From IMG/VR virus record IMGVR_UViG_2851933302_000004: a DNA stretch of 40,715 nt; one strand, given 5' to 3'. This document shows, one piece after another, positions 1,290-27,489 of the stretch. The stretch is from a virus. Its lineage: Duplodnaviria > Heunggongvirae > Uroviricota > Caudoviricetes. The number at the start of each line of letters is the position of its first letter. The stretch's first letter is position 1. Under the pieces are notes generated by a model. The model worked only from the letters and a program-made list of their open reading frames with translations, did not search any database and was not told the origin of the DNA. The position numbers and the translations under genes are program-made.

Positions 1290-1772
1290 CTATCTGGTCA
1301 AAGTGTCGTACTGTTTTTCGCAGACTCTTCCGGCTTCGGCTGCCCGGTCAGCATACTCTGCCAGTTGTCTGTTTCTCTCGAGAGATTTGCTGAGCACGTC
1401 GGCAAGCAAAACTCCGGTGTCTGCGGCTGACGACCCAGCGCCGACAATGGCGTTATACTGCCTGAGCTGCTCACGGATGGCAAAGAGTTGTTGCTGCAAC
1501 CGGCCAGCGCTAGCGGCAGCATCAAGAGCATCATTGCGCGCCTGGTCGATCCTCTGCTGAGCTTCACGTTCATTGGTCACTTTCTCCTGTTCGTAGTACT
1601 GACGAACTTTGTCTTCTTCGGCTTTGCTGTCTTCTTCCGCCTGAGCATACCCGGCATCGTACTGGCGACTGCCGTGTATATTCCAGGCAACCACTCCTGA
1701 TATGACCAGAACAGCAAGCACTGCCACGATAAGAAACTGTTTCCAGTATGCTTTTACGAATGCCCAGATCAT
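1290..1772 (-). CDS. Rz-like inner-membrane spanin (i-spanin)
   Basis: 160 aa, N-terminal TM helix then coiled-coil periplasmic domain; last gene of lysis cassette; start overlaps endolysin stop (ATGA); contains embedded lipoprotein ORF in another frame. Confidence 0.75.
1298..1534 (-). CDS. Rz1-like outer-membrane lipoprotein spanin (o-spanin) embedded in Rz in an alternate frame; start uncertain
   Basis: Embedded ORF with [14 protein letters not shown] lipobox and Pro-rich mature region, typical Rz/Rz1 nested architecture. Confidence 0.5.
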   Translation of the reverse strand: MMLLMLPLALAGCSNNSLPSVSSSGSITPLSALGRQPQTPEFCLPTCSANLSRETDNWQSMLTGQPKPEESAKNSTTL

Positions 1773-2398
1773 ACCGCCAGCACCTTACTGGCAGTGATGT
1801 ACCGCGCTCGCCGGTCGTCGATGCCGTTCCGGCCACCATTGATAATCAGAGTTACACGTGCAATATCGCCGGTATACTTCATGCATCCTTTGCTGGCGAA
1901 GAACCACGCCGCGCTACGAGCCGCATATTCGTCCTGCGCCAGCAGTTCAGGGCTCTCCAGCAGGTCAACCTTCAGACCGTTTCCGCAATCACGATAGTTA
2001 TTCAAACCGGTAATCTGGATAAGTCCGCGCCCTCGGTAATTCCAGCCATCACCAGGGGCATTGTTCCCCATGCGTTTGCTGTATACCAGATTTGCGATCG
2101 CGCGCTGGCGCTCAAGTGGCAATGGTGGTTCACCAGCACGGCGCCCCAGTGCATTAGCCTGCCCCTGAGTGAGACGCCCAGCCCGAACGAAGTTAGCCAG
2201 TCCGCTGACACTGTAGTTGAAATTCTCCTGCAACCTGGTGAAGCCCCCAGACTCATGCCCGACTTGAGCAATAAACATTGCCTGATCTTCTGCTTTGCTG
2301 ATACCAAACTCTTTCATCGCAGAAGTTATATGCGAGAACCAGCGTGCGGCCAGTGCCTCGCTGATACCAGCAGCTCGCTGGAATTGTTTAATCTCCAT
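1769..2398 (-). CDS. Endolysin, glycoside hydrolase family 19 (chitinase-like) type
   Basis: ORF 1769..2563 trimmed to internal ATG at 2398 with GAGG RBS; motifs [34 protein letters not shown] resemble GH19 phage endolysins (recalled). Confidence 0.8.
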
Positions 2399-2696
2399 GT
2401 TTAGACCTCGATACTTTAAAAATTTGAACGACGTTACCGCGCGTTTTAATAACCGCAGCCAGCATGACAGCGTTGATAATGACCTCAGATAAATCCACAG
2501 CCATTGGCGTACGTAACCAGATTGCATAGGCGACTCGAACAGGAATACTGGCCGCAGCAACAATCAGGAAATAAGCAAGCCATCCTCCCCACCTTCGATG
2601 TTGAGAGCCGTTACGCCGGAATGTGACAACGCGAATTGCTATGCCAGTGCAAATAACTGCATTAGTGATAAGCAAAAAAAACTCATGCGTTACCAT
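2388..2696 (-). CDS. Small membrane protein, holin or antiholin-like, of lysis cassette
   Basis: 102 aa with 2-3 hydrophobic helices; overlaps both neighbours in the lysis operon. Confidence 0.5.
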
Positions 2697-3087
2697 CGTC
2701 TTTTCTCCCCGGAATTAACTCGCGTGGATTATCGGAACGGTGATAGAGCCATATACCAATACGCACAGCGACAATTGCTGACACGAATGCGCCTGCAGAG
2801 AAAACAATCCCTTTTTCAAAAGAGTCCTGCGTGATGGTAGGGATCAGGCTGGCTATGCCGATAAGAATTGATGCTGCTGGTTTGTAAAAGAGAAGGCCGC
2901 AAAGAAAGCTGAGCATCGACAGGAGCACCCGGCGACGGATGGGGTACTCTACTGCAGAGGTAACAAAAATTACCGCCCCAGCCAAAGCCCCTAAAGCAAC
3001 CTCCGGAGGGACACCTGCAATAACTGCAGCAAGAGAACCAAAACTAAGCAACTGATTTAATTGCTCACTTGTTACTTGAGCAGACAT
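2683..3087 (-). CDS. Holin-like multi-pass membrane protein, first gene of lysis cassette
   Basis: 134 aa, several TM segments, charged C-terminal tail; position immediately upstream of endolysin. Confidence 0.55.
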   Translation of the reverse strand: MSAQVTSEQLNQLLSFGSLAAVIAGVPPEVALGALAGAVIFVTSAVEYPIRRRVLLSMLSFLCGLLFYKPAASILIGIASLIPTITQDSFEKGIVFSAGAFVSAIVAVRIGIWLYHRSDNPRELIPGRKDDGNA

Positions 3088-3395: not shown

Positions 3396-6300
3396 AACGT
3401 TCTTCCAGAGACTGAACCCGCTCTTTTATCTTATCCATTTCTCTGCGCTGCCATGCTGCCTCGATATAGAATAAGAGATCAGGTCTGACCCCCCATCTAG
3501 ATCCTGCTGGCGTTATTTCAACGCGCTCAATGATGTCTTCTATTACCATCACTGGATTATCATCCTCATCAACAATGATGCTCCCGTCATTATCAGTCAG
3601 CGGCATTTCCCTTTGGCCAGTAATGACGTCATCATATACTGCGGGATAATCGTCATAGCAAAGAAAGGCATAGCGGCATGTTGTGCTTTCTTCTTCCATG
3701 AGTCCGTGAGAAATAAGAACATCACGAAGTTGCTGCGCGATTACACCATGATGTATCCTCGCCCCTTCTTCCCCCTTTATAGCGACAGCGTTCAGCCATT
3801 TATAAGCGATATACCTGACGTCACCCCAGGCATCCAGCAATGCTTCGTCAGGAGAGACCGGCTCTGTCTTTAATGTTCCGTCACTGGTAACCACAGGATT
3901 GGAGCCAAGATAAACTGTCGAGAACCTGTTTCCCGGACCACCAAGAGCATTTACATTATCAAGATAAGGTTTAACATCTCCGTTCTCAAAAAGATGTTCG
4001 AGTGCGTTATATACCGCGCGACGTGGAGTACTGCTTCCGGAACCATGCAACGTTATCATTGCACCATCTGCTGAAGACGTTGTTTCACCGCCGCTAACGA
4101 TTAATCTCTGAGCGGTAACATCATCAGACGGTACTTTCTTCGCAATAATGGCGTAATTACCCTCAAGTTTGACTTCCGCGCGAACTTGTCCTGATGTACC
4201 TGCATGGACAGTCAGTGACTGGACGGCAACATCATCTGTGAAATCAACGGGTACAGGAACCGTCCTCACGCCTGACGTCGACATAAAAGTAGGAAGCGTT
4301 CTGTTAGGAGTGGCTCCGTAGACAAAATCCCTTGAAACAAATTCTTCCTGTTTAATTTTCACCCTGAAACAATACAAATCAGCCGGGTGACCATCGTGAA
4401 CATAAGGATATTTTCTGTTGTTATCCCCTATGCTCCATGGGTTTAGAAAGTCTTCCCCACCGAAAATGTAGTACAGCCAGTTGTCTTTGATACAAACTGA
4501 ACCAACACCAACCGCAGAGTTAACTATTCCGCCCTGATAAATCTGATCAGTAACATTAACCCACTCTACATTATCCAGACTCCACTCATTGACGTTAACT
4601 CTGGTCATAAATGTTCTTGGATAATTTCCTGCATAACGGTTATCAGGTTCTCCTCCTTCCCACTCACCAAATGCGCGCTCACTGCCAAAAATAATCAGCT
4701 CATCGCCAACTTTGGCAAAAGGAAGGTTTGAGTGATGAACATTATTTGGGAAGCGAAGAGAATTCCATGATGTACCTAAATCAGAGCTTCTGTGCAATGA
4801 ACTACCGGGTTGAGTACTTAATGTCCCCCTGGTCGTCAGATACAGAATGCCATCATAATATTTTACACATGGCTCAGATGCATTCGCCTCATATTCTGCA
4901 GGTATGCGTCTGCGAACAAAGCTACCAGGAGAACCGAAAGCATCAGAGAAATAGAGTATCCCAAGCTCGCGTGGACCAATATCACCATTATGGTAGCCAA
5001 CAGCAAAACTGTTATCGCTAATCGTCGCAAAACTGTGAATCTCAGTAACAGGAGTGCTTCCGTCAACAAAAGAAGGAATAGTTCCAAGACTGGTTTTTCT
5101 CCATGGTGACGAGTGAAATGATGTACCAAAACTCCAGTATCTACCCTCGTTATTCTGATCCACATCCTGGGTATTTTGCGTCGTAACTGTAAAAGTATTT
5201 TTATCAATAACAGTAGTCACCGTCATATTCCCGGTAACACCTGTAACACCAGAGTTTGAGAAGTTGACAAAATCACCAGCAAATAATCCGTGATCAGTAA
5301 TGCGAATATAAGCGACTTGCTGATTTGCTGCTTTCGTTATACCACCATAAACGCGAAGGCTGCGACTCATTGGGCGATCCCACAACTCTGCAACCTGCAG
5401 TTTATTTCCGCTCACGGTCCGCGTCTCAATTACAGCAAAAAGGCGATTTCTGACAACCCCCATACTCATGCAGTGATAGTTAACTGTGGGATAGTTTTCA
5501 TGTAAATCTGTAAGCCATTCCGGCGTTGTCCAGGTCTTCCCGTCATCTCCTGAGCGAACCCATGCAACATGGAGGTTATTTACACCATGGCGGTCTCCAG
5601 CCATAAAAGGCGCATAGATGACATTGTCATATACAAACGTTTTATCCTGCGTCCAGGCGTTGTACCACGGTGTATCTGTAATTTTAAATAACTCTCCCTG
5701 GATAAAATCTTCAGAAGCATAAAAAAGAGGCTGGCCCGGTATTCTCTCAAATAAAAAACGAGCATTTTTAAATCGACTGACATCCGGAAGAGTTGATACT
5801 TTAAAAGTAAGCCCTAATCCGTCAATTTTATAACCTGGAGATGAGGCTTCAAGGCACGCGCTTATTGCAGTGGAATCGTCATTTATACCATCACCAACAG
5901 CTCCAAAATCTTTGGGGCTAATAGCATCACGCATTTTATCCTGGAACGTTCGGTACACAGCCCCAGAACCATACTGAATAAACCAACCAAAACCACCAAC
6001 AACCCCGGAGATTGCAGCATCGACATAATTACGCATTGAGCGATTATTTACAGCGTCCTGCTCAAATGATGGATCTGCAAGGTTAGAAATTTTGTTTTGC
6101 TTTGCATCGTAATATTTTGCAAGCAAAGATGGTTTCATCAATGCACGTCTGAACCACCCAAAACATTGCTGGATCAGCATCGTCAGGTAGTCAAAGGCAT
6201 CTTCATGCACTTCGGGGAAAAATTTTCCCTGATTGCGAAGGTCTGTCTCCTGCACTACATCAAGCACACGATCTATCGTAATTCGCCATCCAGTAGCAAG

Positions 6301-8351: not shown

Positions 8352-9047
8352 ATGACAGCTACAAAAAGCACGTCCATTTTTTCTTTCGAATCCCAAGCCG
8401 ATATACGGGTAATCGTCATTAATGGTGAGCCATGGTTTATCGCTTCAGATGTTTGTCGGGCTATAGGCATAGCAAATCATCGAGATGCTGTTCGAAAACT
8501 TGATGATGATGAGAAGGGCGTCGCTTCAACCGACACCCCTGGCGGTGAGCAAGAATCGATCATCATCTCCGAGTCAGGCCTCTACACACTGATCCTCCGC
8601 TGCCGCGACGCAGTGACACCAGGCACTATCCCCTACCGCTTTCGTAAATGGGTTACAGGTGAGGTTCTTCCTCAGATCCGCCGCACCGGAAGTTACATTA
8701 AAAACTCGCTCCCGCAGGAAGAACGCATAAAGATGGTTGCCGACCAGGTAGCCAACGCCACAGCATCAGCAGTGATGCAGGCAATGAAGATAGAGAACAA
8801 AACCTACAGTGCCCCACTGAAGCCCGGCTACCGCAGCCTGATTCATTCGCCGTCTGGTGTTCTCGGCCTGACGGAGAACTCACTGCTGATGAATCTGCTG
8901 AACCAGTTACAGGAAGACGGGCACGACGTATCGGGCGCGGCGGCGGAGCTGACCACCATGTTCTGCTACATCGTCGGTGTGAGCAAGTGCCTGCGTGATA
9001 TCCAGACGCACGCGGAGTACATCAACGACAAGGCTGGGTTCTTCTGA
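8352..9047 (+). CDS. Bro-N domain protein with C-terminal antirepressor-like domain
   Basis: N-terminus FSFESQADIRVIVINGEPWFIASDVCRAIG is a classic Bro-N signature; C-terminus paralogous to the 85-aa SOS-regulated protein. Confidence 0.7.
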   Translation: MTATKSTSIFSFESQADIRVIVINGEPWFIASDVCRAIGIANHRDAVRKLDDDEKGVASTDTPGGEQESIIISESGLYTLILRCRDAVTPGTIPYRFRKWVTGEVLPQIRRTGSYIKNSLPQEERIKMVADQVANATASAVMQAMKIENKTYSAPLKPGYRSLIHSPSGVLGLTENSLLMNLLNQLQEDGHDVSGAAAELTTMFCYIVGVSKCLRDIQTHAEYINDKAGFF

Positions 9048-9113
9048 CGGGCGGCGGCACATGGATGTGCCTTTAAAATAATCATTGGCGATGTGATGTA
9101 GATTCGCGTAATA

Positions 9114-9128
9114 TTACCTTACGGGTAA
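9114..9128. promoter_or_regulatory. Operator-like palindrome TTACC-N5-GGTAA (copy 3) 60 bp upstream of the 210-aa gene
   Basis: TTACCTTACGGGTAA. Confidence 0.45.
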
Positions 9129-9187
9129 GAAAGCGTTTTTAATCTTCCCTTCAAAACGCGTCCTGTAGCCAAACATGGGAGGACGAA

Positions 9188-9820
9188 ATGAAAACAAATA
9201 CAACAAGAAAAGCGATGCCATACATTATCCCAGAAGCAGATTTCGACAGAAAACTGAACATGTCTGAGAAGAACACTAGTCACACCGAAAGCTACTTAGC
9301 GAAAGGTGTGGTTGATTTCGTTCTTCCGGGATTCACAACACCTTATGGTTATCGCCTTGTAAAATCTTGTAATGGCGATCATTACAGAATGATTACTACC
9401 AGCGATACTCCAGAAACGGTGTATGCGGTTAAGTTAATCTTTCGGGAAGATATCGTCGAAGCTAAAAGAACATGTACGCAGATCATGGTATGGCGTACGC
9501 CTAATGTTATTCATGACCGTGCTGTTCATGGTTTGCCTCAGATTTTTTTTCAGTTCTTCCTAGAGCAATATGCGATCGTTGTATCTGATGAGCAACAAAC
9601 AATCGATGGGAGAAGATTCTGGGAAAGAATGATTTCTTGGGCTATAAACACCCCGGGATATAATGTATACGTTTCAGATGGCTCTGAAGAAGATAGACCT
9701 CTTAGCTTCATGACATCATGGGATGATTTCTATAGCCAGTGGGCTGATTTCTGTTGGGGCAGTGATAAAGATGTGCATACCCACAGACTACTGGTTATAA
9801 GCAAAGATAAACTGCATTAA
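9188..9820 (+). CDS. Hypothetical cargo protein, 210 aa, function unknown
   Basis: ORF with GGGAGG RBS; operator copy upstream and strong terminator downstream; no recognisable family. Confidence 0.5.
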   Translation: MKTNTTRKAMPYIIPEADFDRKLNMSEKNTSHTESYLAKGVVDFVLPGFTTPYGYRLVKSCNGDHYRMITTSDTPETVYAVKLIFREDIVEAKRTCTQIMVWRTPNVIHDRAVHGLPQIFFQFFLEQYAIVVSDEQQTIDGRRFWERMISWAINTPGYNVYVSDGSEEDRPLSFMTSWDDFYSQWADFCWGSDKDVHTHRLLVISKDKLH

Positions 9821-9825
9821 TAGAA

Positions 9826-9846
9826 GCCCGCAGCGCGGGCTTTTTT
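9826..9846 (+). terminator. Rho-independent terminator after the 210-aa gene
   Basis: GCCCGC-AGC-GCGGGC hairpin followed by TTTTTT. Confidence 0.65.
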
Positions 9847-9918
9847 GTGGACGAAACAAAAGTCAGTGCTACACTCATTGACGCCACATTGAGGTGGCTT
9901 ATAGATGGAAATTTCACA

Positions 9919-10080
9919 ATGAAAAAAGCATTTGCTGCACTGTTCGTTTTGTTGTCTCTGGTAGCTTCAACTCAGGCCTTTGCCGGTCGTTGTCAGCACG
10001 ACAGCGATACTGCTGCTGACGGCTCCCGCTGCGGTGGGCGTTCTGCGGATTCCCGCCCGGGTGGCGGTGGCATTCGTTAA
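9919..10080 (+). CDS. Small secreted Cys/Gly-rich peptide (about 53 aa), hypothetical
   Basis: ORF 9847..10080 trimmed to internal ATG giving signal peptide MKKAFAALFVLLSLVASTQAFA; weak RBS. Confidence 0.3.
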   Translation: MKKAFAALFVLLSLVASTQAFAGRCQHDSDTAADGSRCGGRSADSRPGGGGIR

Positions 10081-10086
10081 AAACAA

Positions 10087-10102
10087 GGCCGCGAAAGCGG
10101 CC
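10087..10102. terminator. Bidirectional terminator hairpin between convergent genes
   Basis: GGCCGC-GAAA-GCGGCC with T-rich flanks on both strands. Confidence 0.5.
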
Positions 10103-10109
10103 TGTTTGA

Positions 10110-10961
10110 TCACTGTGCAGTTTTCGCTGATCGATTTTCAGCTCTAAATTCAAGAACCGTTTCAATATTTCTTTCCTTCAGCATATCAATAACATTTTTA
10201 TTCATTTGACTATCACTGGTTAATAACTGGTAAACGTTGCTTCTCTCTTTATCAGAGTTTTCTTTAACAGCTGCTTTGCATGCCAAATGCTTATTGAAAT
10301 TTTCTACATCGCTAGTACAGGAATTTACGGCTGCTGATGAAATATCAGACGCTGAAGAAACACCATCATCCAAACGTTTTATAGCATTTTCTATACATGA
10401 GTTAAGGGAATAAACGACAACTGAGCGATACCCTTCAGACGCACACCATTCTAAATTTCTTGAAGGATCGAGTGGTTTTACTTCGCTGGATTGAATTAAC
10501 TTGTCAAAAACTGACTTATATTCAATCTGTTTTTTATCTATAGCCCATACTTCAGTAGCTGATTTATAATTCCCCGTATGCCTATTAACATCAAATCCAT
10601 GTTTTATAAGCAAATCTGCCCATGAAAGATTTATTGATTCATTGTTATGAGGCCATTTTCCTGTCAGAACCGCCCCCATAGACCCCATATATCCGCCATA
10701 TGATGGTATAGCACCATGGCTCAGTAACTTCTCAGCAACCACAGGGCAATTAATTACATAAGAGGCGTAAAGCCCATTCCATAAAGCCCCTCTATAGTAA
10801 TCGCCACGATTAGGTTCTTTTAAGTCGATAGCCTTTGATAATTGTTCACACGTTTTGCATGCATCAAAGTTATCCTTATTGCATTGCAATGAACTGGCAG
10901 CTGTAGGATTTACAGAGACTATTGAAAGCACTATGCCAAAAAACAAATTTATTTTTTTCAT
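10110..10961 (-). CDS. AT-rich secreted protein, 283 aa, possibly ankyrin-like repeats; moron at the distal end of the virion operon
   Basis: Signal peptide MKKINLFFGIVLSIVSVNPTAASS; codon composition visibly more AT-rich than neighbours; LLSHGA / LLIKHGFDVN segments are ankyrin-like. Confidence 0.55.
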   Translation of the reverse strand: MKKINLFFGIVLSIVSVNPTAASSLQCNKDNFDACKTCEQLSKAIDLKEPNRGDYYRGALWNGLYASYVINCPVVAEKLLSHGAIPSYGGYMGSMGAVLTGKWPHNNESINLSWADLLIKHGFDVNRHTGNYKSATEVWAIDKKQIEYKSVFDKLIQSSEVKPLDPSRNLEWCASEGYRSVVVYSLNSCIENAIKRLDDGVSSASDISSAAVNSCTSDVENFNKHLACKAAVKENSDKERSNVYQLLTSDSQMNKNVIDMLKERNIETVLEFRAENRSAKTAQ

Positions 10962-10962
10962 C

Positions 10963-13900
10963 CTATTTCATCTGCTCTTCAACTTTATTTAGTAACGGTG
11001 ATATTGCCCACAGGTTCTGAAAAGGTAGCATTTTACGGACCGCGTGGGTTTGCTGGCTGTCAAATTCTCCGTTAAGTACACCATTCGCAACCGTCGCGGC
11101 ATCACCGCCAAGATCAAAGGTAGGACCAAGTAAAGCACCAATAGCATTACGACTCTGAAACCTTGATACCGGAGGCGCACCAAACATCGCGCCAAGACCA
11201 AACCTACCGCCGCTTATGTTCTCAACGGTATTCAGCGGCTCAGAGAGCCAGCCAAGCATTCCGCCCCGGTCGATCCCCTCTTTCACAAGGTTATTCCAGC
11301 TGTAGTCAATATCGCGACCGCTTAACTTCTGTTTCATCATATAGACCATTGAGCCAAGCGCAATCGTGCCAAGCGCACCAAGATAGAATGCAGCATCGCC
11401 CTGCTGGATACCAGATACCAGCACCCTGTTATGCTGTGCGAAGATAAACGTTTTGAACTGCGTGATCATCTTCCAGCCTTCTTTACTAAAAAACAGCGGT
11501 GTATCACCTACGCCAGGCGTTACAATCACTGAGTCTACATCTTTCAGCACTGCAGACTGGAAAATCTCTCTAGCGAAACGGTCATCCCACAGATGACTAT
11601 GCCCGGTTAACAGCCCGTCCATATCCTCTCCGTGCTTCCCGAATTGCTCCCCGATTCGGCGCAGAACATCTTCATTGATGCCGACCTGTGCCATCTTCCG
11701 CATTTCACTTTTGGAGAGCGTGCCACCAGCAGAAACTTGGCGAGCCGCGTCAAGTATCCTCGACTGCACTATCATCCCGGACCATGATTTAAGTGCGCTG
11801 TTCCACTGATTCATCAGCGTCCAGTTACCGAATTTCTGCGTCATCCAGTTCAGGCCTCGCTCAGCGGCGCTTCTCCGGCTATATGGGTCAGTAAGATCCG
11901 CTATAGCCTTTGTACGCGTAGACAGGACATAATCAAGCCCAACGGCCATTTCTCGCAAATCCCTGGTTGCAATTTTCACTGAGTCCATATTTTTAAGCAT
12001 GCTTACCATTGGTCCGAGAGATTTTCTCAGGCCATGCTGCATCATCGGTCGCATCAGATCAGTTGCAGCGGAGACAGTCATTCCACCAAGCAAACGGAGG
12101 AAGTTAATATTCCTAGCAACTCGCCCGGCACGAACAAAGAAACTGCGTGGATCTTGAGGTGCACCGTAAGTACCAAGCAGTCGATCACGCATAGCCGTAA
12201 TATCCCTAATATCAGCCTCCCGTTGCTTCTCAAGAACTGCACGTCGTTTAGGCGTTTTAGCCTCTTTTATTAGCCGGGTATATTCCTCACTAACCTGACG
12301 GATTTGCTCCCCCATATCTTTACGGCCAAACTGCGCAGTCAGCTCAATTTCTGGTGCCACCTGCCGGAGATAACTTTCCATGATGTAGTTAACATCTGAT
12401 TCAAGAAAATCTTCTATACGCTCATCAGGAATAAGCAGCGTTCTGCTTTTAGTGAAACCAGCCCGACCAACGAGTCTCTCTGGGATAATATCGGCTGGTA
12501 CAAGCCCGGAAGGTGCACCTATTATTTTATTCACGATCTCGTCAGCAGCGTCCTCTGCTTCCTCTCGGGATAGAGGCTCCATCTGCTTCAGTGCTCGTTC
12601 GCGGCTTGCATTCAGCCTTGTGGTTGAATTTGCCCGTTTTTGCAGTCGGCGAAGCTCAGAACGATATTTCCGTGGATTATCCAGCAACTCCATATGGCGC
12701 TGATAGACAGGAAGCTCACTCTTTGCCTGCGCTATATCATCAAGGCGTGTTTTAAGGTCAGAGCTTTCTTTCATCATTCTTGCCTGAAGTTTTTCTGATG
12801 AAGTCTCGGCCAACTCTTTTTCTATTCTTGTAAGACGCGCCTGTGTGTCAGTCTCCTGAGATATAAGCTTATTTCGTTTATCCAGTTCTTCCATGAGTAG
12901 AATTTTTTTACCAGACCATTTCTCCGCTTCAGCGATTTCACTAGCGAGAGCATCAGCGCGCGGTGCCGATTCCTCTGCAGTTTTTAGCAATGAATTTATC
13001 CTTTCAATTCGCTGACCTGCCTTGTCAGCACCTTTGGCACTAATCCCTTGTATCCAGTTGGCAATTCGCCCTCTGAATTCAGTGCGGTCGGAAAGTATCT
13101 TATCGAACTTATAAATGCGGGGAAGATAACTTTTCGCCGTCACGACATCGATATCCTCAGGAAGGATCCCCAGTTCCTGCATACGGGCTTTTGTGGTCTC
13201 GAAAATGGGGCGGATTCTGGCAGCTGCTTGTGAAACCTCAGGAATATCACTCTGATCACCACGGCGCATAGCCATGCCAACAGCTTCATTGAAATCAATA
13301 AAGTTCATCCTCTTCACGCCGCGGGCGCTAACAGATTTGCTGTACTGCTGGTAAGCATCACGAGTGGCTTCCATCTGCTTATAAAGCATGGCGTCGTATT
13401 GCTTAATCTTAGTCTCGACTGCCGTAAACGTAGCCAACCCCTCATCATTTTTGGCGAAGAAATAGTTATTTTCGGCAAGCTGCTGGTTAATCTGACGGGA
13501 GACAAGAGATGGTGATTGCGCCAAGCGGCCAGCAGGAGTGACACTCAACGTTTTGTTAGCAAGTCCAAGTCCAGCGAGCTGTTCCTGATCGAGTGTGGTA
13601 TTGAAAACCTGAGCTGCACCAATGCTTTGAGGAGAATCCATACCTCGCAAATGATTACCTACTGAGTTAACCACTGCCTCGCGCGCGCCAGGTCCAGCAA
13701 GTAGCTGTGCACCAGCACCAAGGATCCCACCAACGAGAGCATCAACAACAACGTTCGATACGCTCTCCATCGGTGAGCGAGCTTCCTGAGTGGCCTGTAA
13801 TGCGGCCTCTGAAGCAACACTGCCAGCAGCATTCGCCAGGGCAAAACGCCCGGCTGTTTCTGCAATACGACCGCCACGAACGACAGCGCCGAACGGAATA

Positions 13901-14352
13901 AACATAGAAATCGCATTGAATGGATCTGCTAATCTCATTGCTACAGAAGAGACTGTACCAGCAAATCCCAAGCCTGAATTGTATTCCATGTCAGCTCTCT
14001 GCTGATCGATTCGATGTTTAATTGCCATTGTTTCTTCAGGCGAACCGGAGTTGATAAACGAATCTGCAAAATCTTCATAGCCTTTAATATCTGCTGCATC
14101 GTTATCAAATGGGTTATATCCTTCAACCCTGTCAAACTGACTGAAAGGAGCACTGGCAATAAAGCTACCCAGCGTGTTATCTATACGAAATGCTGCTTGT
14201 CTAGACCTTTGAACGCGTTGATCACTGGTAAATGGGTTCACAGCAGAAAGCAAAGAAGGTGTTTCCATATAGAAATTACTGTCATCAGGTGCTGCTATTT
14301 GCTGAATATCCTCGCCAAGCAACTCTTTAGGATCCTGTTCATATATCGGCAT
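10963..14352 (-). CDS. Large internal virion / DNA-ejection protein (positional analogue of T7 gp16)
   Basis: 1129 aa, coiled-coil rich, last large gene of the structural block; assignment by size and gene order only. Confidence 0.5.
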   Translation of the reverse strand: MPIYEQDPKELLGEDIQQIAAPDDSNFYMETPSLLSAVNPFTSDQRVQRSRQAAFRIDNTLGSFIASAPFSQFDRVEGYNPFDNDAADIKGYEDFADSFINSGSPEETMAIKHRIDQQRADMEYNSGLGFAGTVSSVAMRLADPFNAISMFIPFGAVVRGGRIAETAGRFALANAAGSVASEAALQATQEARSPMESVSNVVVDALVGGILGAGAQLLAGPGAREAVVNSVGNHLRGMDSPQSIGAAQVFNTTLDQEQLAGLGLANKTLSVTPAGRLAQSPSLVSRQINQQLAENNYFFAKNDEGLATFTAVETKIKQYDAMLYKQMEATRDAYQQYSKSVSARGVKRMNFIDFNEAVGMAMRRGDQSDIPEVSQAAARIRPIFETTKARMQELGILPEDIDVVTAKSYLPRIYKFDKILSDRTEFRGRIANWIQGISAKGADKAGQRIERINSLLKTAEESAPRADALASEIAEAEKWSGKKILLMEELDKRNKLISQETDTQARLTRIEKELAETSSEKLQARMMKESSDLKTRLDDIAQAKSELPVYQRHMELLDNPRKYRSELRRLQKRANSTTRLNASRERALKQMEPLSREEAEDAADEIVNKIIGAPSGLVPADIIPERLVGRAGFTKSRTLLIPDERIEDFLESDVNYIMESYLRQVAPEIELTAQFGRKDMGEQIRQVSEEYTRLIKEAKTPKRRAVLEKQREADIRDITAMRDRLLGTYGAPQDPRSFFVRAGRVARNINFLRLLGGMTVSAATDLMRPMMQHGLRKSLGPMVSMLKNMDSVKIATRDLREMAVGLDYVLSTRTKAIADLTDPYSRRSAAERGLNWMTQKFGNWTLMNQWNSALKSWSGMIVQSRILDAARQVSAGGTLSKSEMRKMAQVGINEDVLRRIGEQFGKHGEDMDGLLTGHSHLWDDRFAREIFQSAVLKDVDSVIVTPGVGDTPLFFSKEGWKMITQFKTFIFAQHNRVLVSGIQQGDAAFYLGALGTIALGSMVYMMKQKLSGRDIDYSWNNLVKEGIDRGGMLGWLSEPLNTVENISGGRFGLGAMFGAPPVSRFQSRNAIGALLGPTFDLGGDAATVANGVLNGEFDSQQTHAVRKMLPFQNLWAISPLLNKVEEQMK

Positions 14353-17099
14353 TATTTGCCCCCTGCGTATATATTGCTCGGAAGGTAATTGGCTGAACCA
14401 TAACCGAATGGTTTGGTCAGATCTGGAGGAGTATATCCATCTTTATTGCTGAACTGCGGCAGCGGATTGCCTTCTCTCCGCACTCTAGCCTCATCAACAC
14501 GCTGTTGCTGGAACTGAATGGTTTGCCTGTACATTGGAGATGTCAGCTGATCCGGCTTGAAACGAACAGGGAGACCATTTTCTCCAATATAATTTCTCGG
14601 TTCTATCGCTCCGTTTGCGTCAGGCTGTAAAACCATAACAGCATAACTCCTATCCCTTGCCGTAAGGCCATCAGAAACAAGTATTAAGTCCGTATCACTG
14701 CGAGGACCGCCAAAGGATTTTGATTTAAGCTCGCGTTTTTCCTGCTCCCACTGCCCCTGTATCCAGTTACCAGCACCATTATTTACTCCGTACAATGCCT
14801 CAGGTGCATACTTCATAACCTCTGCTTTGCCATTAACTGTAGAAACTCCCCAGGTGGTTCTGATCATGGCATTGGTCATTTTCTCAGCCTGTTCTGCATC
14901 GCCACCTGTCTGTACAAAGTTAGCATCGTAAATTGTCTGGTAATCTCGCTGATAGGCCGCATTTGATTTTCCTGGATCGGTAATATCCGGAGACCACGAA
15001 CCAAAGGAAGTCAGACTGCTGGCGTTATTTTGTGCAGCAGTTGCCCTCGCCGCGACATATTTTTTGTCTCGCATGGCAGTGGAAAGCATCTGTTTCATTC
15101 GGTCATCCTGTTGGAACACCTGGCTGTAAGCCATATCAACAGCCTTATCCTCCGGCACGCCAGCGCGGGAATAATCGTAAACCTTGCCGTAAAATGCCAT
15201 CGTACTTTTATCAAGTGTTGCCGCTGCCGCCGGATTATTATCAAATAACTGACCGTAGAATTTTGCCATCGGGACAACCAGCGCAGGATCTCTTGATGTT
15301 GCTCCACTGTTAAGCATTGTTTTAACCTGAGTTGGTATCATGCCGCTTTTAGTTGTGACGGTGACCAGTGTATTGATGCTCTGCGGATCAGATATGGAAA
15401 ACGAAGGCGCGATATCCTGCGCGAAATAACGGTCTACCGCTGCCTGATTGTTTTTGTCGTTCGGGTCCAGCGGGAAGTTATTTTGCATTGAAGACACGAA
15501 CCTGTTTCTTCCCTGCTGAATCTCCCACTCCCTATCCATCTCTTTAAATTTGGCCTGCATTTTCTCCCAGCGTTGCTGGTTAGCTGCAAATCCAGGAGCG
15601 TTTGGATCCTGTGGACGTAAACGTTCAAGAATGTCTTGTCGTCCTTCTGGAGTGAGGTCTTTAGCGGCACCAATGACACCTCCATATTGTATCTGCGCCT
15701 GCATATCCTTCCACTTCATAGCGCCAATGCGCGGACCATTGGCCCGGATAAAATCGTCCTCAGAAGGTAACTTCTCAGGTTTCAATCCTTCATCAAGGGC
15801 TGAATATGCATCTTTAACTACGGTGCTAAGCTGGTCCGCATACTGCTGGCGGTACTGATTTCTCAGCTCATTAGCCTGCCTCAATGCCTGTATTTGCATT
15901 TGAGGGCTCATAGCGTCAAATGCCGCATTGCCCGTATAACGCTTAGGTGAATCAAGGTTAGTTAGACCAAGGGATGCCGAGATACCAGTTTCAAGCTGTT
16001 CGGTGCTATAAGGCATACTGCCATTTTCGTGTTTAATAATCCCAGCACATAAAGCAGCTAGTGTCTTTGGGTTAGAGATATCAAGCTGATCATTCTCCCC
16101 AACACCAAGCTCACTACACAATGCCCTAATATAAGCATCAGTATTATTACCATCACTAGCCGGAGCATAGCGATTAACAATCTCGCTAACGGTGTCATAG
16201 CCTTGACGCTGGTAAGACAACATATTTTTACCCAACGCGCGGATTCCATGCTCAGGGGTAGCAAACGTTGCAAAACGTCCATCGCTACCGATCTGACCTT
16301 CCCACGGGTTAGATTTGCTCGCTTCAATATTACCAGGGTTATTATTACGTAAACCACGAGCATCCAATGAATTACCATGTGATATTGCACGACTCACACC
16401 ATCAAGATCCCCTGGCTCTCCATTAACCTGAAGAAACTCGTTGTATTTTTGAGCGATATTTCCTATCCATGCTTGCTGCCCCATTTGTTCCTTGAGCTGA
16501 GTTTTCTGCTGAACACGCCACCCATCAGGAAGCCCATGTGCATCAGCGTATTGATCAATAGATTCAAATCGCTGCTTGGCTAAATCGACAAATGCTTGGT
16601 TATCGCTATATAGCCCCGCAGACTGAGTGACAGCCAATGCATTTCCTGACAAATACGTTTGATCTTGGAATTGCTGAAACTGCCCAACTTCATATCGACG
16701 TGCCTGATTGTAATAAGACTGCATAGACTGCTGGAGTTGAAAGGATAATTTATTCCTTTCCTCACTTTCAGGAATTGAGCCTAATAATGCCTGAGCCCTT
16801 TCCTGCATATTTTTCATAACAGCGTCACTCTGACCAAGAGCGTTTTTACCCTGTTTAGAAATCAGCCCATTTTCAGGGTTGTTAATCTGGTCATCTGCAA
16901 ATTGGTTAAATTGCAGTAACGCCTCCTGAGCCATAGCAACATTCGCTTTCTGCCTGGCTTCACCATATGCCACCGCATACTGATCTGCGACATTCGCCAG
17001 CACCTGACCTGCTTGAGGAACATCGAAGGTCTGAAAACCACCGGTTTGCACACCACGACTTTGCACCTGGCGTCCGGATGTAGTAGGAACAACTGGCAT
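14352..17099 (-). CDS. Internal virion protein (positional analogue of T7 gp15), possible cell-wall-degrading domain
   Basis: 915 aa; segment DARGLRNNNPGNIE..GIRALGKNMLSYQRQG is reminiscent of virion-associated hydrolase domains (uncertain); gene order. Confidence 0.5.
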   Translation of the reverse strand: MPVVPTTSGRQVQSRGVQTGGFQTFDVPQAGQVLANVADQYAVAYGEARQKANVAMAQEALLQFNQFADDQINNPENGLISKQGKNALGQSDAVMKNMQERAQALLGSIPESEERNKLSFQLQQSMQSYYNQARRYEVGQFQQFQDQTYLSGNALAVTQSAGLYSDNQAFVDLAKQRFESIDQYADAHGLPDGWRVQQKTQLKEQMGQQAWIGNIAQKYNEFLQVNGEPGDLDGVSRAISHGNSLDARGLRNNNPGNIEASKSNPWEGQIGSDGRFATFATPEHGIRALGKNMLSYQRQGYDTVSEIVNRYAPASDGNNTDAYIRALCSELGVGENDQLDISNPKTLAALCAGIIKHENGSMPYSTEQLETGISASLGLTNLDSPKRYTGNAAFDAMSPQMQIQALRQANELRNQYRQQYADQLSTVVKDAYSALDEGLKPEKLPSEDDFIRANGPRIGAMKWKDMQAQIQYGGVIGAAKDLTPEGRQDILERLRPQDPNAPGFAANQQRWEKMQAKFKEMDREWEIQQGRNRFVSSMQNNFPLDPNDKNNQAAVDRYFAQDIAPSFSISDPQSINTLVTVTTKSGMIPTQVKTMLNSGATSRDPALVVPMAKFYGQLFDNNPAAAATLDKSTMAFYGKVYDYSRAGVPEDKAVDMAYSQVFQQDDRMKQMLSTAMRDKKYVAARATAAQNNASSLTSFGSWSPDITDPGKSNAAYQRDYQTIYDANFVQTGGDAEQAEKMTNAMIRTTWGVSTVNGKAEVMKYAPEALYGVNNGAGNWIQGQWEQEKRELKSKSFGGPRSDTDLILVSDGLTARDRSYAVMVLQPDANGAIEPRNYIGENGLPVRFKPDQLTSPMYRQTIQFQQQRVDEARVRREGNPLPQFSNKDGYTPPDLTKPFGYGSANYLPSNIYAGGK

Positions 17100-22425: not shown

Positions 22426-23418
22426 TTACACCACGCGGGCTTCTGTTTCCAGAAGCGCATCAGTTTCACGGATTGGTACACCACGGAATGAAGTCCACCA
22501 CTCGCCTTCTGTCTCTTTTACGCTGATCGCCAGAGATGTTTTCTCCAGAGATTGCAGATCAAGAGCCTGGCCTACAGTGCGGTTCATGTAGAACACCGGG
22601 CGACCCATGCCACGATTTGGAATGCGATGCAGTGCTTTAACCATCAACTTCGCAATATTTGCGGCAGAGGAAGGTTCTGAAAGATTGCTGACATCGATGT
22701 TTGCAATGCGAACAACATAACGCCAGTCACGCAGAGCAAGTCCGTTGTCCCATTTGTAATGGGTACGGTAGCCTTCGTACTTGCCGCCATTAGCATCTTC
22801 CAGTGTCACCTGGCCTTTATCTTCCATCTGAATGCCAGCCTTCTGCCCTTTCGGGAAGATGCCATGCACTGTGTTTTCGCCCCACACCACTAACCAGATT
22901 GAGGTGTTATCTGTACCCGTGCCACCAGCATCAATGATGTTCTGAGCATTACCTGCAGACAGGCTGGAATAGCGGGAGGACAGTCCCATAAACTGCTGAG
23001 GGTTAACGCTGGAATCACCATAAAACAGCGTCTGCGCCATCTGCTGATTCATCGCTTCAATAAATGCGCGGTCTTCAGACAGGCGGAATTCGGCGGTATT
23101 ACCGTTCAGATCAGCCAGTGACTTATCGACTTCAGCATAGGTTTCCAGCATTCCAACGGAATCGGTGACCTGCACTGTGGTTGATTTGCTTGGCTGTACG
23201 CCATAGTTCAGCAAACGCCAGGTGGCTGAAGGTAAACCAGAACGAATGGTGGTTCGGTGTCCGGTAGGAAGGTTCCCTTCGACAAAAGGCATATCCTGAA
23301 GGATCGGGTTAGTTTGACCGAGAAGCTCGATAATCTTATCGACTTTCCCGTTTTTATCGACGCGCTTACCCCAGTCAGCCAGCGTTAGCGCAGTTAAGCC
23401 TTTAACAGCCATTGTCAT
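22426..23418 (-). CDS. Major capsid protein
   Basis: 330 aa; follows scaffold gene; size and composition typical of HK97-fold podovirus capsid proteins. Confidence 0.7.
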   Translation of the reverse strand: MTMAVKGLTALTLADWGKRVDKNGKVDKIIELLGQTNPILQDMPFVEGNLPTGHRTTIRSGLPSATWRLLNYGVQPSKSTTVQVTDSVGMLETYAEVDKSLADLNGNTAEFRLSEDRAFIEAMNQQMAQTLFYGDSSVNPQQFMGLSSRYSSLSAGNAQNIIDAGGTGTDNTSIWLVVWGENTVHGIFPKGQKAGIQMEDKGQVTLEDANGGKYEGYRTHYKWDNGLALRDWRYVVRIANIDVSNLSEPSSAANIAKLMVKALHRIPNRGMGRPVFYMNRTVGQALDLQSLEKTSLAISVKETEGEWWTSFRGVPIRETDALLETEARVV

Positions 23419-24128: not shown

Positions 24129-24421
24129 TCCTGTTCACTGGCCTCTTTGGCCATCTTCAAATACTGTTCAGGACAATGCGCCATAACGCGCTGAAACAGT
24201 TCCAGCGCCAGATTGCGTTGCCCCTCATTAAATGCCATTGCCATAGCGTCCATCGGTGAGATAGCGGAAAACACACGGCCTTTCTCCAGCACCGACCAGA
24301 CAACGCGACGCCCCTGTTCACTGCTCATGACAAAGCGAATGTCATCAATTTCACGCTGTGCCATGTCACGTTGCTTACGGGCGTTTTCTTCTTTCAGTTG
24401 ATCGTCTTCGTAATCTGTCAT
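24125..24421 (-). CDS. Hypothetical small protein between portal and scaffold genes
   Basis: 98 aa ORF, overlapping stops and starts with neighbours. Confidence 0.4.
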   Translation of the reverse strand: MTDYEDDQLKEENARKQRDMAQREIDDIRFVMSSEQGRRVVWSVLEKGRVFSAISPMDAMAMAFNEGQRNLALELFQRVMAHCPEQYLKMAKEASEQE

Positions 24422-26097
24422 TGTGATTGCCCACCCTGACCACTAACTGCATTCGCCATAGCTGACAAAACACTCGGATCCGAAGTTTTAGCTTCGCTTA
24501 GCGTCTTGGCACCCTGTGCCGCCGCCATCCCCATCGCCATCATTTGTTGCTGCTGTTGCTGCTGTGCCCGTTGCTGGCGAGCCTGCTCAACCTGTTCCTG
24601 CGGAACAATGACGGTTGGAGACACTCCGGACATATCAGCGAATGCATCGATCGCCTGATCAACGTTGAGTTTGTCGAGAGCTTCTGGTTTCGCTTGCGCA
24701 AGTTGACCAATGAAGTTAACCGTGGACGCCAGACTGGACAGGCCGATAGACTTCTGCGCCTGAGCCATGACGGAAATGTATTCGACCTTCAGGGGCATAC
24801 CTTCCATCACGTCTGGCGGTGGCGGCAGCATGTTTTTACGCACCATCATCGAGAAAGAGCGGTCAATGAGAGGATTAAGACATTCGTCGTTCAGACGCTC
24901 CAGAACCGGCCCCAACATCAGAAGTTTTTCTTCTTTCATTTCGATCACCGCTTCAACAGGCATCGAGCGGGTATTGATGTTCTGCAACATCATGAACAGA
25001 TCGACAAAGTAGGCGCTGTTAATGATTTGACGAGTGTCCTGAATGTCTGCCACCAAATCTGCTGTACTGGGGTTAACCAGATAAGCAGGCCTGAAACCAT
25101 CCTGACCAGTAATCTGATCGATATACGTGATGTCGCCAGGAAGAAGGGAGGCACGCTGATTCTTGAGGGAAGTCGGAGCAACCATCGGCGGATTGGTGGC
25201 TTTATCAATCAACTGCGACTTGCGCTTCTGGAGAAGCTGCAATGCCTTAACAGGTCCAAGCGCCAGCATACCCGGGCATGATGATCCATAAACATCTTCG
25301 CCGTTAACTTCCCAGCGCGGAGCCATAATTGGAAACTCATCGAATCCGGACTCACGCAACAACTTGTCGTTATCGCCACCAACCTCGTAATAAACCGATT
25401 TGAATGGCTTGTTCTTGCTATCCAGCTTCGATGTATCGCGGTCAATGTTCGGGTAAACCGAATGCATCACTTCAATCCACTTCTCGTAGGTGCCGCTTTC
25501 CCACATGCTTTTTACGGATTCGCTGACGTTATTTAGCCCGAACTCCTGAACAAGCTGACGAACAGTCATAGAGAACTTGCGAAAACAGGTGTCCACACTG
25601 CCACGAGGTGAGTTAGCCAGGTAGTAACTGCCTATCGGGAATGGCATTGTGCGAATGATGTCCTCGTCATCCTCCAGCACCGCCATTGCACCAGTGCTGT
25701 ATGTGCCGAGGCTTCCGTATAACTGCGGAAGAGACTGGTAGAGATTCGACTTATTGAACATATCGTTCATGCGGTTCTGCACCGCCTCGAGCCACAACTT
25801 AACAGGACCATAATCCATCATTTCAGGATCTGGCGTAGCCAGGCGAAACCACGGACGCGCAGGGCTTGTGATGCCTGACATCATGCCGCTGGCGAGAGTG
25901 CGCGCCGCCATAGTCCCGGTCGAATCAATAATGCGTGTATTGCGTCGATCGTTACGGTTGACTTCAGAAGTCAGAAAGCGGGAACCACGCGGGTTGATGT
26001 AATCACTCAACTCGCGCCAGTGCGGCTCGAACGACTGACGCTCGCTTTCAAGTTGTGCGAACTGTTTGTTCAATCGCTCTTTAGTTGTTTCCGCCAT
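24418..26097 (-). CDS. Portal protein
   Basis: 559 aa with Gln-rich C-terminus; first gene of head block; size and order. Confidence 0.7.
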   Translation of the reverse strand: MAETTKERLNKQFAQLESERQSFEPHWRELSDYINPRGSRFLTSEVNRNDRRNTRIIDSTGTMAARTLASGMMSGITSPARPWFRLATPDPEMMDYGPVKLWLEAVQNRMNDMFNKSNLYQSLPQLYGSLGTYSTGAMAVLEDDEDIIRTMPFPIGSYYLANSPRGSVDTCFRKFSMTVRQLVQEFGLNNVSESVKSMWESGTYEKWIEVMHSVYPNIDRDTSKLDSKNKPFKSVYYEVGGDNDKLLRESGFDEFPIMAPRWEVNGEDVYGSSCPGMLALGPVKALQLLQKRKSQLIDKATNPPMVAPTSLKNQRASLLPGDITYIDQITGQDGFRPAYLVNPSTADLVADIQDTRQIINSAYFVDLFMMLQNINTRSMPVEAVIEMKEEKLLMLGPVLERLNDECLNPLIDRSFSMMVRKNMLPPPPDVMEGMPLKVEYISVMAQAQKSIGLSSLASTVNFIGQLAQAKPEALDKLNVDQAIDAFADMSGVSPTVIVPQEQVEQARQQRAQQQQQQQMMAMGMAAAQGAKTLSEAKTSDPSVLSAMANAVSGQGGQSQ

Positions 26098-27463: not shown

Positions 27464-27489
27464 AGCCCGCCGATTCGCGGGCTTTTTTA
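27464..27489 (+). terminator. Rho-independent terminator after the moron gene
   Basis: AGCCCGC-CGATTC-GCGGGCT followed by TTTTTT. Confidence 0.6.

Follow-up and report, generated by a model that had tools for sequence, protein, structure and literature searches.

The gene considered here lies on the minus strand at 10110..10961 of a 40,715-nucleotide stretch of viral DNA (Caudoviricetes; IMG/VR record IMGVR_UViG_2851933302_000004), which we call the window; all positions are those of the whole window. Its 283-residue product is a member of the protein family phrog_6118 (family hidden Markov model match E 1.1e-200, residues 1-283/283), and database entries for it read only 'hypothetical protein'. 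From a comparative analysis we tentatively propose that this protein is a periplasmic, immunity-type inhibitor of the muramidase that its own phage injects, a role that we consider quite possible, if somewhat short of probable. The proposal draws on a predicted export signal, on an N-terminal domain of predicted ankyrin fold that is also encoded next to Enc34/PHA02564-type muramidases outside this phage lineage, and on a fixed position downstream of an ejection protein that carries such a muramidase domain. The features on which the argument depends are as follows.

10110..10961, minus strand: coding sequence of the phrog_6118 protein, 283 residues, ATG start, stop codon at 10110-10112 (list of open reading frames)
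10893..10961, minus strand: predicted Sec-type (signal peptidase I) signal peptide, residues 1-23, MKKINLFFGIVLSIVSVNPTAAS (hydropathy and motif heuristic)
10476..10892, minus strand: N-terminal domain (N-domain), residues ~24-162, predicted cysteine-stapled ankyrin-repeat module
10113..10475, minus strand: C-terminal domain (C-domain), residues ~163-283, predicted helical bundle, with the motif C189...LDDGxSxASDI...C215 and R273
10961..10965, minus strand: junction TAG-G-ATG with the preceding gene (sequence and reading-frame coordinates)
10963..14352, minus strand: 1129-residue internal virion protein, T7 gp16-like (phrog_342, phrog_16310)
14352..17099, minus strand: 915-residue internal virion (gp15-like) ejection protein (phrog_1044, phrog_873, phrog_7182)
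15942..16355, minus strand: predicted Enc34/PHA02564-type muramidase domain, residues ~249-386 of the 915-residue protein (RNNNPGNI and KHENGS; motif search and hidden Markov model matches)

Export signal, cysteines and domains

The phrog_6118 protein begins with MKK, followed by 14 hydrophobic residues and NPTAA|S, and thus presents a basic n-region and small residues at positions -3 and -1; the Kyte-Doolittle maximum over 12 residues of this region is 2.73. The layout is typical of a signal peptidase I substrate and is common to 16/16 aligned homologues on which our heuristic hydropathy and motif analysis was run, in agreement with an earlier note on this DNA that had predicted a signal peptide. 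Neither a lipobox nor a further hydrophobic or transmembrane segment was found in the protein or in the 16 aligned homologues, and a lipoprotein was ruled out because the lipobox is missing. The mature part holds eight cysteines that are invariant in the 16 sequences (C27, C35, C38, C72, C173, C189, C215, C228), a pattern that, as far as sequence conservation can tell, is compatible with disulfides.

The first four of these cysteines belong to the invariant features of the N-domain, together with the motifs GDYYRGALWNGLY, GG and KWPHN. The earlier note had also remarked on ankyrin-like segments, and the structural model bears this out: the N-domain forms stacked helix-turn-helix repeats, which makes it, on this prediction, an ankyrin fold. 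No Pfam family, including Ank and Ank_2-5, matched the whole protein at E <= 1; scans against NCBIfam and PADLOC recovered no family either (PADLOC none at E <= 1). Searched against the sequences of the PDB, neither the single protein nor an N-domain profile gave more than marginal DARPin/ankyrin matches (E 0.5-1.7), and Foldseek against BFVD gave only weak ankyrin matches. Like canonical ankyrin repeats (Pfam Ank clan), the domain contains LLxxGAxP-like motifs, and its family profile reaches true ankyrin proteins. Unlike them, it is short (about 3 repeats) and irregular in its repeats, has a CX7CX2C cap at the N-terminus and is predicted to form two disulfides.

An exhaustive profile search separated the two domains into independent families, neither of which has a Pfam model. 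The N-domain (residues ~24-160) occurs alone as secreted proteins of ~160-170 residues, which share its four cysteines and have the motifs GDYYRGAxWNGLY, GG..GS and KWPHN; phage and stand-alone members have the putative binding-surface motifs ALWNGLY and KWPHN in common. Occasional fusions join it to MORN, TPR or other modules. Larger secreted proteins with an N-domain were seen as MORN-repeat fusions (458-479 residues) or with a beta-rich C-terminal region (291 residues) in the loci L029, L030, L033 and L034, which are from marine metagenomes, and L031, indicating that the module is reused in other architectures. The C-domain (residues ~165-283) likewise exists alone, as secreted proteins of 110-160 residues with the motif C...LDDGxSPASDIA...C...R. 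A profile scan of genome contigs gave two loci only, and scans of viral contigs with both domains found essentially the same phage lineage, plus one uninformative fragment (L120).

Association with Enc34/PHA02564-type muramidases

The putative enzyme partner lies 5 kb upstream of the phrog_6118 gene, in the same operon, as a domain of the 915-residue ejection protein. This domain matches PDB entries 7Q47, the Enc34 endolysin's catalytic domain (E 9.1e-17), and 9VVP, Gp29 (E 1.4e-35). Its KHENGS motif aligns with the RHENGS of Enc34, which holds Glu131, and the glutamate is kept in all loci; judged by these matches, it is an Enc34/PHA02564-type muramidase with its catalytic glutamate retained. 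PHROG annotates the families of the 915-residue protein as 'endolysin' or 'tail injection transglycosylase'. The PHA02564 domain of Enc34 has a lysozyme-like alpha-lobe with Glu131 as catalytic residue and is muralytic on sacculi of E. coli, Pseudomonas and Hafnia (PMC8943055).

We read the gene neighbourhoods of homologues in Morganella, Serratia, Klebsiella and Providencia genomes, in 14 gut-metagenome contigs and in 31 IMG/VR contigs. In all of these 40-odd loci the phrog_6118 gene stands directly after a gene for a ~1129-1133-residue ejection protein on the same strand, which makes the 1129-residue protein the constant upstream neighbour of the family. An Enc34-type ejection protein is encoded ~3.4 kb upstream in all 31 IMG/VR loci and in all genome loci; the flanks of the metagenome contigs are too short to reach that gene. 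Across the five phage lineages the identities of the N-domain and of the Enc34-type domain track each other (0.87/0.87, 0.69/0.77, 0.55/0.48 and 0.51/0.48), and the C-domain diverges faster over the same series (0.86, 0.48, 0.29 and 0.25).

The same two domains meet outside this phage lineage. In a Bacteriovoracia metagenome-assembled genome (L016/17/20), the gene of a stand-alone N-domain overlaps by 4 nt the end of a gene for a 219-residue Enc34-type protein. In a Joint Genome Institute metagenome (L018/19), the overlap of the N-domain gene, likewise of 4 nt, is with the start of a gene for a 179-residue Enc34-type protein. In a third locus of 64% GC (L036), an Enc34-type gene directly follows. 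All three partner proteins are without a signal peptide, and their shared domain reads RN(N/Q)NPGNI...W.G...F..F...G..A...(Y/W)AP..(E/D)N...ENG. A further N-domain homologue (L021) lies in a phage tail and baseplate module, with a baseplate hub gp41 and a spike N-terminal domain, and 3.2 kb upstream of it a PhageMin_Tail protein carries the Enc34-type domain. The arrangement expected of an effector-immunity system, an immunity gene that adjoins the enzyme gene or is co-transcribed with it, is seen in three translationally coupled pairs of unrelated context, one tail module and the operon of the window.

These neighbourhoods could be coincidental, or limited to distant homologues, with the phrog_6118 protein binding something else in the periplasm, for example a host envelope protein or receptor. 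Most stand-alone homologues are indeed without an Enc34-type neighbour, ankyrin scaffolds are easily retargeted, and the C-domain gives no clue from structure. However, one rare domain recurs in five independent associations (the three pairs, the tail module and the Uetakevirus-like lineage of the window), and the surface motifs ALWNGLY and KWPHN are conserved in phage and stand-alone members alike. We therefore regard a different binding target as rather unlikely.

The small Enc34-type partners also raise the possibility of an orphan-type immunity, in which the prophage protein shields the lysogen not from phages but from the Enc34-like peptidoglycan-hydrolase effectors of competitors, delivered by a type VI secretion system (T6SS) or a similar device. 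Like secreted effectors, these partners have no signal peptides and stand outside phage contexts; one T6SS effector that carries an Enc34-like domain has been described together with immunity proteins bearing signal peptides (PMC13340143); and many N-domain genes are orphans, sometimes in runs of small genes without assigned function (L056). Yet no T6SS genes adjoin any N-domain homologue that we read, and the phage copy is locked, in the 40-odd loci, to an ejection-protein operon with its own cognate-type enzyme. Nor did a promoter for lysogenic expression come to light: our search of positions 9000-12000 found no sigma-70-like site on either strand, against 5.1 expected from shuffled sequences. 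Protection against competitors' effectors alone thus seems quite unlikely to us. Although it includes an AT-rich stretch, the interval 9000-12000 seems to be depleted of sequence resembling promoters.

The inhibitor reading joins these observations as follows. The phrog_6118 protein would be made from the tail end of the late transcript for virion and ejection proteins, coupled to the gp16-like gene, and would be exported by the Sec route to reside in the periplasm as a disulfide-stabilised two-domain protein. On infection, the 915-residue ejection protein would deliver its muramidase domain into the same compartment. Because the one protein has a signal peptide and the enzyme has none, they could meet only in the periplasm, the enzyme arriving there by injection. 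The N-terminal mini-ankyrin domain would then bind the Enc34/PHA02564-type domain in the manner of an immunity protein, and a cell expressing it would neutralise the muramidase of sibling or related phages. The outcome would be superinfection exclusion and resistance to lysis from without, in an infected or a lysogenic cell, and late co-expression is compatible with the protection of a cell in which progeny accumulate as the cells around it lyse. The C-domain may in turn bind a second target, possibly another ejection protein. The reading as a muramidase inhibitor draws on the known periplasmic ankyrin immunity factors and on the Enc34-like T6SS pair, besides the gene neighbourhoods; we infer the physical binding, inhibition instead of activation, and the exclusion phenotype.

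Two further loci touch on such a role. In L052, a stand-alone C-domain is encoded 63 nt downstream of a cI-like repressor (HTH_3 and Peptidase_S24), and a position just downstream of the repressor is classic for genes expressed in lysogens. In L054/55, the AT-rich gene of a C-domain alone fills the slot after the gp16-like gene of another relative (gp16 identity 52%). Both placements of the C-domain would fit a protective accessory role, if weakly. Within L054/L055, at 5001-6182, the slot holds the C-domain alone (156 residues, GC 0.316) and then an AT-rich secreted protein of 227 residues (GC 0.332); the slot seems to collect AT-rich exported proteins.

Several points weigh against the inhibitor reading. 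The model of the N-domain is only moderately confident (predicted local distance difference test, pLDDT, ~50-90), and the fold search with the C-domain returned no informative structural match. Neither the sequence nor the fold of the protein resembled that of T4 Spackle or of other known inhibitors such as Ivy and PliC. Within the flanks read, 8 of ~12 informative non-phage contexts of stand-alone N-domains contain no Enc34-type gene; these may be orphans or have other partners, and Pfam scans of the neighbours of orphan N-domain genes (L025, L026, L028 and L036) gave no useful match. Binding of the muramidase could also mean activation rather than inhibition. The negative promoter search leaves expression in lysogens, where exclusion would matter most, hypothetical, and a protein made only late could protect only late in infection. 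Finally, Morganella-type relatives encode, besides the domain of the ejection protein, an Enc34/PHA02564-type endolysin (L004/L005, 12247-12723; also L059 and L074), which is 36% identical to the Enc34-type domain of their own ejection protein. A broad-spectrum inhibitor would oppose the lysis of these phages, and specificity therefore has to be assumed.

Taken further, phrog_6118 might represent a new class of proteins for superinfection exclusion and resistance to lysis from without, in which a cysteine-stapled mini-ankyrin in the periplasm specifically plugs Enc34/PHA02564-type muramidases. The same module would be the immunity half of unrecognised bacterial muramidase pairs, fusion to the C-domain might neutralise a second ejection protein and give a two-headed inhibitor of the injection machinery, and the AT-richness might serve H-NS-type control. 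We regard this wider scheme as doubtful. Our literature searches turned up neither this family nor a periplasmic exclusion factor of ankyrin type from a phage. The logic of inhibiting an injected cell-wall hydrolase, or of an effector-immunity pair, is known; what would be new are its scaffold, its class of enzyme and the architecture of the fusion.

If true, this would be the first inhibitor family for Enc34/PHA02564 peptidoglycan hydrolases, a class of enzymes under development as enzybiotics. It would give a function to two orphan secreted families, the stand-alone N-domains and C-domains, that are scattered in bacterial and phage genomes, and would help to recognise new muramidase effector-immunity pairs. 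Host-range prediction in phage therapy would be affected as well, since lysogens with the gene might resist related phages.

Composition, inheritance and genomic setting of the gene

The earlier note had described an AT-rich gene for 283 residues at the end of the virion operon, with a composition deviating from that of its neighbours, and all of this holds. The gene has a GC content of 0.367 and a third-position GC content (GC3) of 0.282, whereas the virion genes upstream have 0.47-0.54 and 0.42-0.59, respectively, and the flanking genes have a GC content of ~0.48-0.50. Of all 852-bp windows in the 40.7 kb it has the lowest GC content (z = -3.6), with 0.1% of them as low. It is also the last gene of an operon in which genes for terminase, portal, major head, tail and four internal virion proteins come before it on the same strand. 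Only 1 nt separates the TAG of the 1129-residue gene from the ATG of the phrog_6118 gene, a junction that implies translational coupling to this late-operon gene; in homologous loci the gap is 1-31 nt.

Downstream, the gene is closed by a hairpin, placed as follows.

10086..10103: GC-rich hairpin terminator, 7 bp including 6 GC pairs, between the phrog_6118 gene and a convergent gene for 53 residues

The hairpin starts 6 nt past the stop codon, is followed on the minus strand by the U-run UUGUUUUU, and folds stably on either strand (-16.5 and -17.5 kcal/mol, z about -4). It had been called a bidirectional terminator. The strong hairpin stands, but only the minus-strand direction passed the terminator scan, and termination in both directions is only structurally plausible because the U-tract on the plus strand is weak.

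Homologues of the protein formed only 22 clusters among 5.8 billion proteins, all from Enterobacterales. A tblastn search of plasmids gave no match, and one of GenBank phages gave Escherichia phage EC.W1-9 as the sole match. In epsilon15/phiV10-like prophages from E. coli, Klebsiella, Serratia, Morganella and Providencia, the gene is found in this same slot behind the gp16-like gene. Among 5426 complete E. coli genomes, 105 carry it, always in the chromosome and at >= 95% identity, including the extraintestinal pathogenic E. coli (ExPEC) strain IHE3034 and ST95 strains. The 3' end of the 1129-residue gene is present in 119 complete E. coli genomes, including that of an ST131 strain, and about 14 of these 119 (~12%) are prophages with the same gp16 allele that have no phrog_6118 gene. 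The amino acid identities of homologues to the window copies are as follows.

Klebsiella: phrog_6118 protein 0.86, gp16-like protein 0.90, gp15-like protein 0.82
Serratia: phrog_6118 protein 0.56, gp16-like protein 0.79, gp15-like protein 0.57
Morganella: phrog_6118 protein 0.41, gp16-like protein 0.55, gp15-like protein 0.43
Providencia: phrog_6118 protein 0.37, gp16-like protein 0.52, gp15-like protein 0.33

The GC content of the gene stays at 0.35-0.40 in all these hosts, even beside neighbours of 52-54% GC. Recent horizontal acquisition was ruled out by this AT-richness in all hosts and by the divergence that runs parallel to that of the neighbours. Both argue for an old passenger that was co-inherited with the ejection module and retained its composition. 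How a cargo gene stays AT-rich beside co-inherited neighbours of normal GC across five genera is a small puzzle in itself.

The slot carries other genes in related phages. It contains a 46-residue membrane protein in phiV10, a 118-residue membrane protein in phiv142-3 and other genes in TL-2011b, and the Klebsiella phage ST512-KPC3phi13.3 has the same 1129-residue protein with an unrelated 204-residue cytoplasmic protein in the slot. The last case and the ~12% of E. coli prophages without the gene rule out an obligate structural partner of the 1129-residue protein. As phiV10 and ST512-KPC3phi13.3 have Enc34-type ejection proteins and no phrog_6118 gene, the protein appears dispensable for the virion, which fits an accessory protective role.

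The same facts bear on a role as helper of the phage's own infection or lysis, be it as periplasmic activator or chaperone of the muramidase, as regulator of lysis timing, or as a minor virion or ejection component whose N-terminus is a membrane anchor instead of a cleaved signal. Co-transcription and coupling with ejection-protein genes would suit such a helper, as would the Enc34-type endolysin of the Morganella relative, and the Tli protein of Enterobacter cloacae is known both to neutralise and to activate its toxin. But the relatives just named have the same ejection proteins without the gene, and about 14 of the 119 E. coli prophages have the same gp16 allele without it; the endolysin of the window phage is GH19/chitinase-like, not Enc34-type; and eight conserved cysteines and secreted stand-alone homologues favour an oxidising compartment over the interior of a capsid. 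We consider a helper function the least probable of the alternatives.

The earlier note had read the gene as a horizontally acquired moron that could act on the cell envelope or in host interaction. Action in the cell envelope is plausible. As for the moron, the gene resembles those of HK97 and lambda in its deviant base composition, its own 3' terminator and its variable presence among similar phages at a fixed slot, which holds unrelated cargo in relatives. It differs from them in that it is not autonomous, the search described above having found no promoter of its own and the gene having a 1-nt coupling to the upstream late gene, and in its age, being conserved at one position in 40-odd loci of five genera with a divergence that tracks that of its neighbours. 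It is better described as a lineage-conserved, late-operon-coupled periplasmic cargo gene that is genomically linked to an Enc34-type muramidase.

A classical lysogenic-conversion gene, acting on the host envelope or on an animal host through adhesion, serum resistance or virulence, would gain from the composition, terminator and variable slot, from the presence of the gene in ExPEC strains such as IHE3034, and from the frequency of ankyrin repeats among host-directed bacterial effectors. However, the gene is tied to a late gene with no promoter of its own found, a Sec signal with no route across the outer membrane takes the protein no further than the periplasm, homologues are known from environmental bacteria and from the metagenome-assembled genome of a predatory bacterium, where there is no animal host, and the gene neighbourhoods point to a muramidase instead of host factors. 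Conversion of this kind is, in our view, very unlikely.

As a whole, the window represents the genome or prophage of a temperate, epsilon15/phiV10-like (Uetakevirus-type) podovirus, ~99% identical to phage EC.W1-9 over the region compared. Its remaining landmarks are listed here.

27487-28962, minus strand: terminase
24418-26097, minus strand: portal
22426-23418, minus strand: major head protein
minus strand, in the virion operon between the head and internal virion genes: 823-residue tail protein
minus strand: four internal virion/ejection proteins of 154, 192, 915 and 1129 residues
39465-40715: integrase
1769-3087: two holins and a GH19/chitinase-like endolysin

At residues 530-575 the 1129-residue protein has a short match to the Pfam family DUF919 (baculovirus) that only just passes the threshold, and its PGAP name is 'DUF919 family protein'; this seems to reflect a coiled-coil artefact and not homology. 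The convergent gene for 53 residues (9919-10080, plus strand), which runs toward the hairpin, encodes a secreted, Gly-rich peptide with two cysteines and a match to phrog_14503 ('membrane associated protein', moron category). Conservation of this gene is 98-99% in TL-2011b, phiv142-3, HEMP4 and Shiga toxin (Stx) phage fragments, all without the phrog_6118 gene. The 210-residue open reading frame at 9188-9820 (plus strand; phrog_1349) is also AT-rich (GC 0.408, GC3 0.379). Its equivalent neighbour in TL-2011b is annotated in the RefSeq record as a YafO-family toxin, and the accessory region of L054 also has a YafO_toxin gene. A Bro-N anti-repressor-like protein is encoded at 8352-9047 (plus strand), and its last ~90 residues are identical to the C-terminus of a 314-residue protein of TL-2011b (L002, 6331-7275), which occupies the slot region and differs in the rest. 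On sequence grounds, the shared C-terminus looks like a mosaic, exchangeable module.

Comparison with known inhibitors and immunity proteins

A periplasmic ankyrin-repeat protein that shields its producer from a peptidoglycan-degrading enzyme delivered to a periplasm is known from Bdellovibrio bacteriovorus, where Bd3460 is the self-protection protein against the DD-endopeptidases Bd3459 and Bd0816 (PMC4686830). Like the N-domain genes of the pairs described above, Bd3460 is encoded beside its enzyme, and a Bacteriovoracia metagenome-assembled genome carries a stand-alone homologue of our N-domain. The differences are that the enzymes inhibited by Bd3460 are DD-endopeptidases and not glycosidases, that Bd3460 is not phage-borne, and that it has neither the cysteine staple nor the C-terminal helical domain.

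A likeness to the stand-alone N-domains is also seen in periplasmic T6SS immunity proteins, in which a signal-peptide immunity gene is coupled to the gene of a signal-less hydrolase. E. cloacae Tli is a periplasmic ankyrin-repeat immunity protein of this kind. A T6SS effector with an Enc34-like N-terminal domain is flanked by signal-peptide immunity proteins, one of them an 18.5-kDa hypothetical protein, Tai5a of Stenotrophomonas rhizophila, paired with the Enc34-like effector domain (PMC13340143). Its 18.5 kDa is the size of the stand-alone N-domains; Tai5a and Tli are likened to them here by description. The N-domain homologues that we read differ in having no T6SS genes nearby, and in the phage lineage the part of the 'effector' is taken by a domain within a virion ejection protein.

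Among phage proteins the counterpart is Spackle (Sp) of T4, the product of gene 61.3 and a periplasmic inhibitor of the tail lysozyme gp5. The two systems differ in scaffold, as the phrog_6118 protein combines a predicted ankyrin module with a novel helical domain, and in enzyme, as its proposed target is of the Enc34/PHA02564 type and not of the T4-lysozyme type. They also differ in timing: T4 sp is an early gene, and the phrog_6118 gene comes last in the late virion operon of a temperate podovirus. Both proteins are nevertheless small, phage-encoded, helical and disulfide-containing, with a signal peptide and a periplasmic destination that in our case is predicted, and the role proposed here is the one that Spackle has, the neutralisation of the virion-borne cell-wall hydrolase of a superinfecting phage. 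Should the proposal prove true, the phrog_6118 protein would be a second, non-homologous example of the Spackle strategy, in which the injected cell-wall enzyme is blocked and not the receptor or the DNA, and one that comes from temperate podoviruses common in ExPEC, Klebsiella, Serratia and Morganellaceae.

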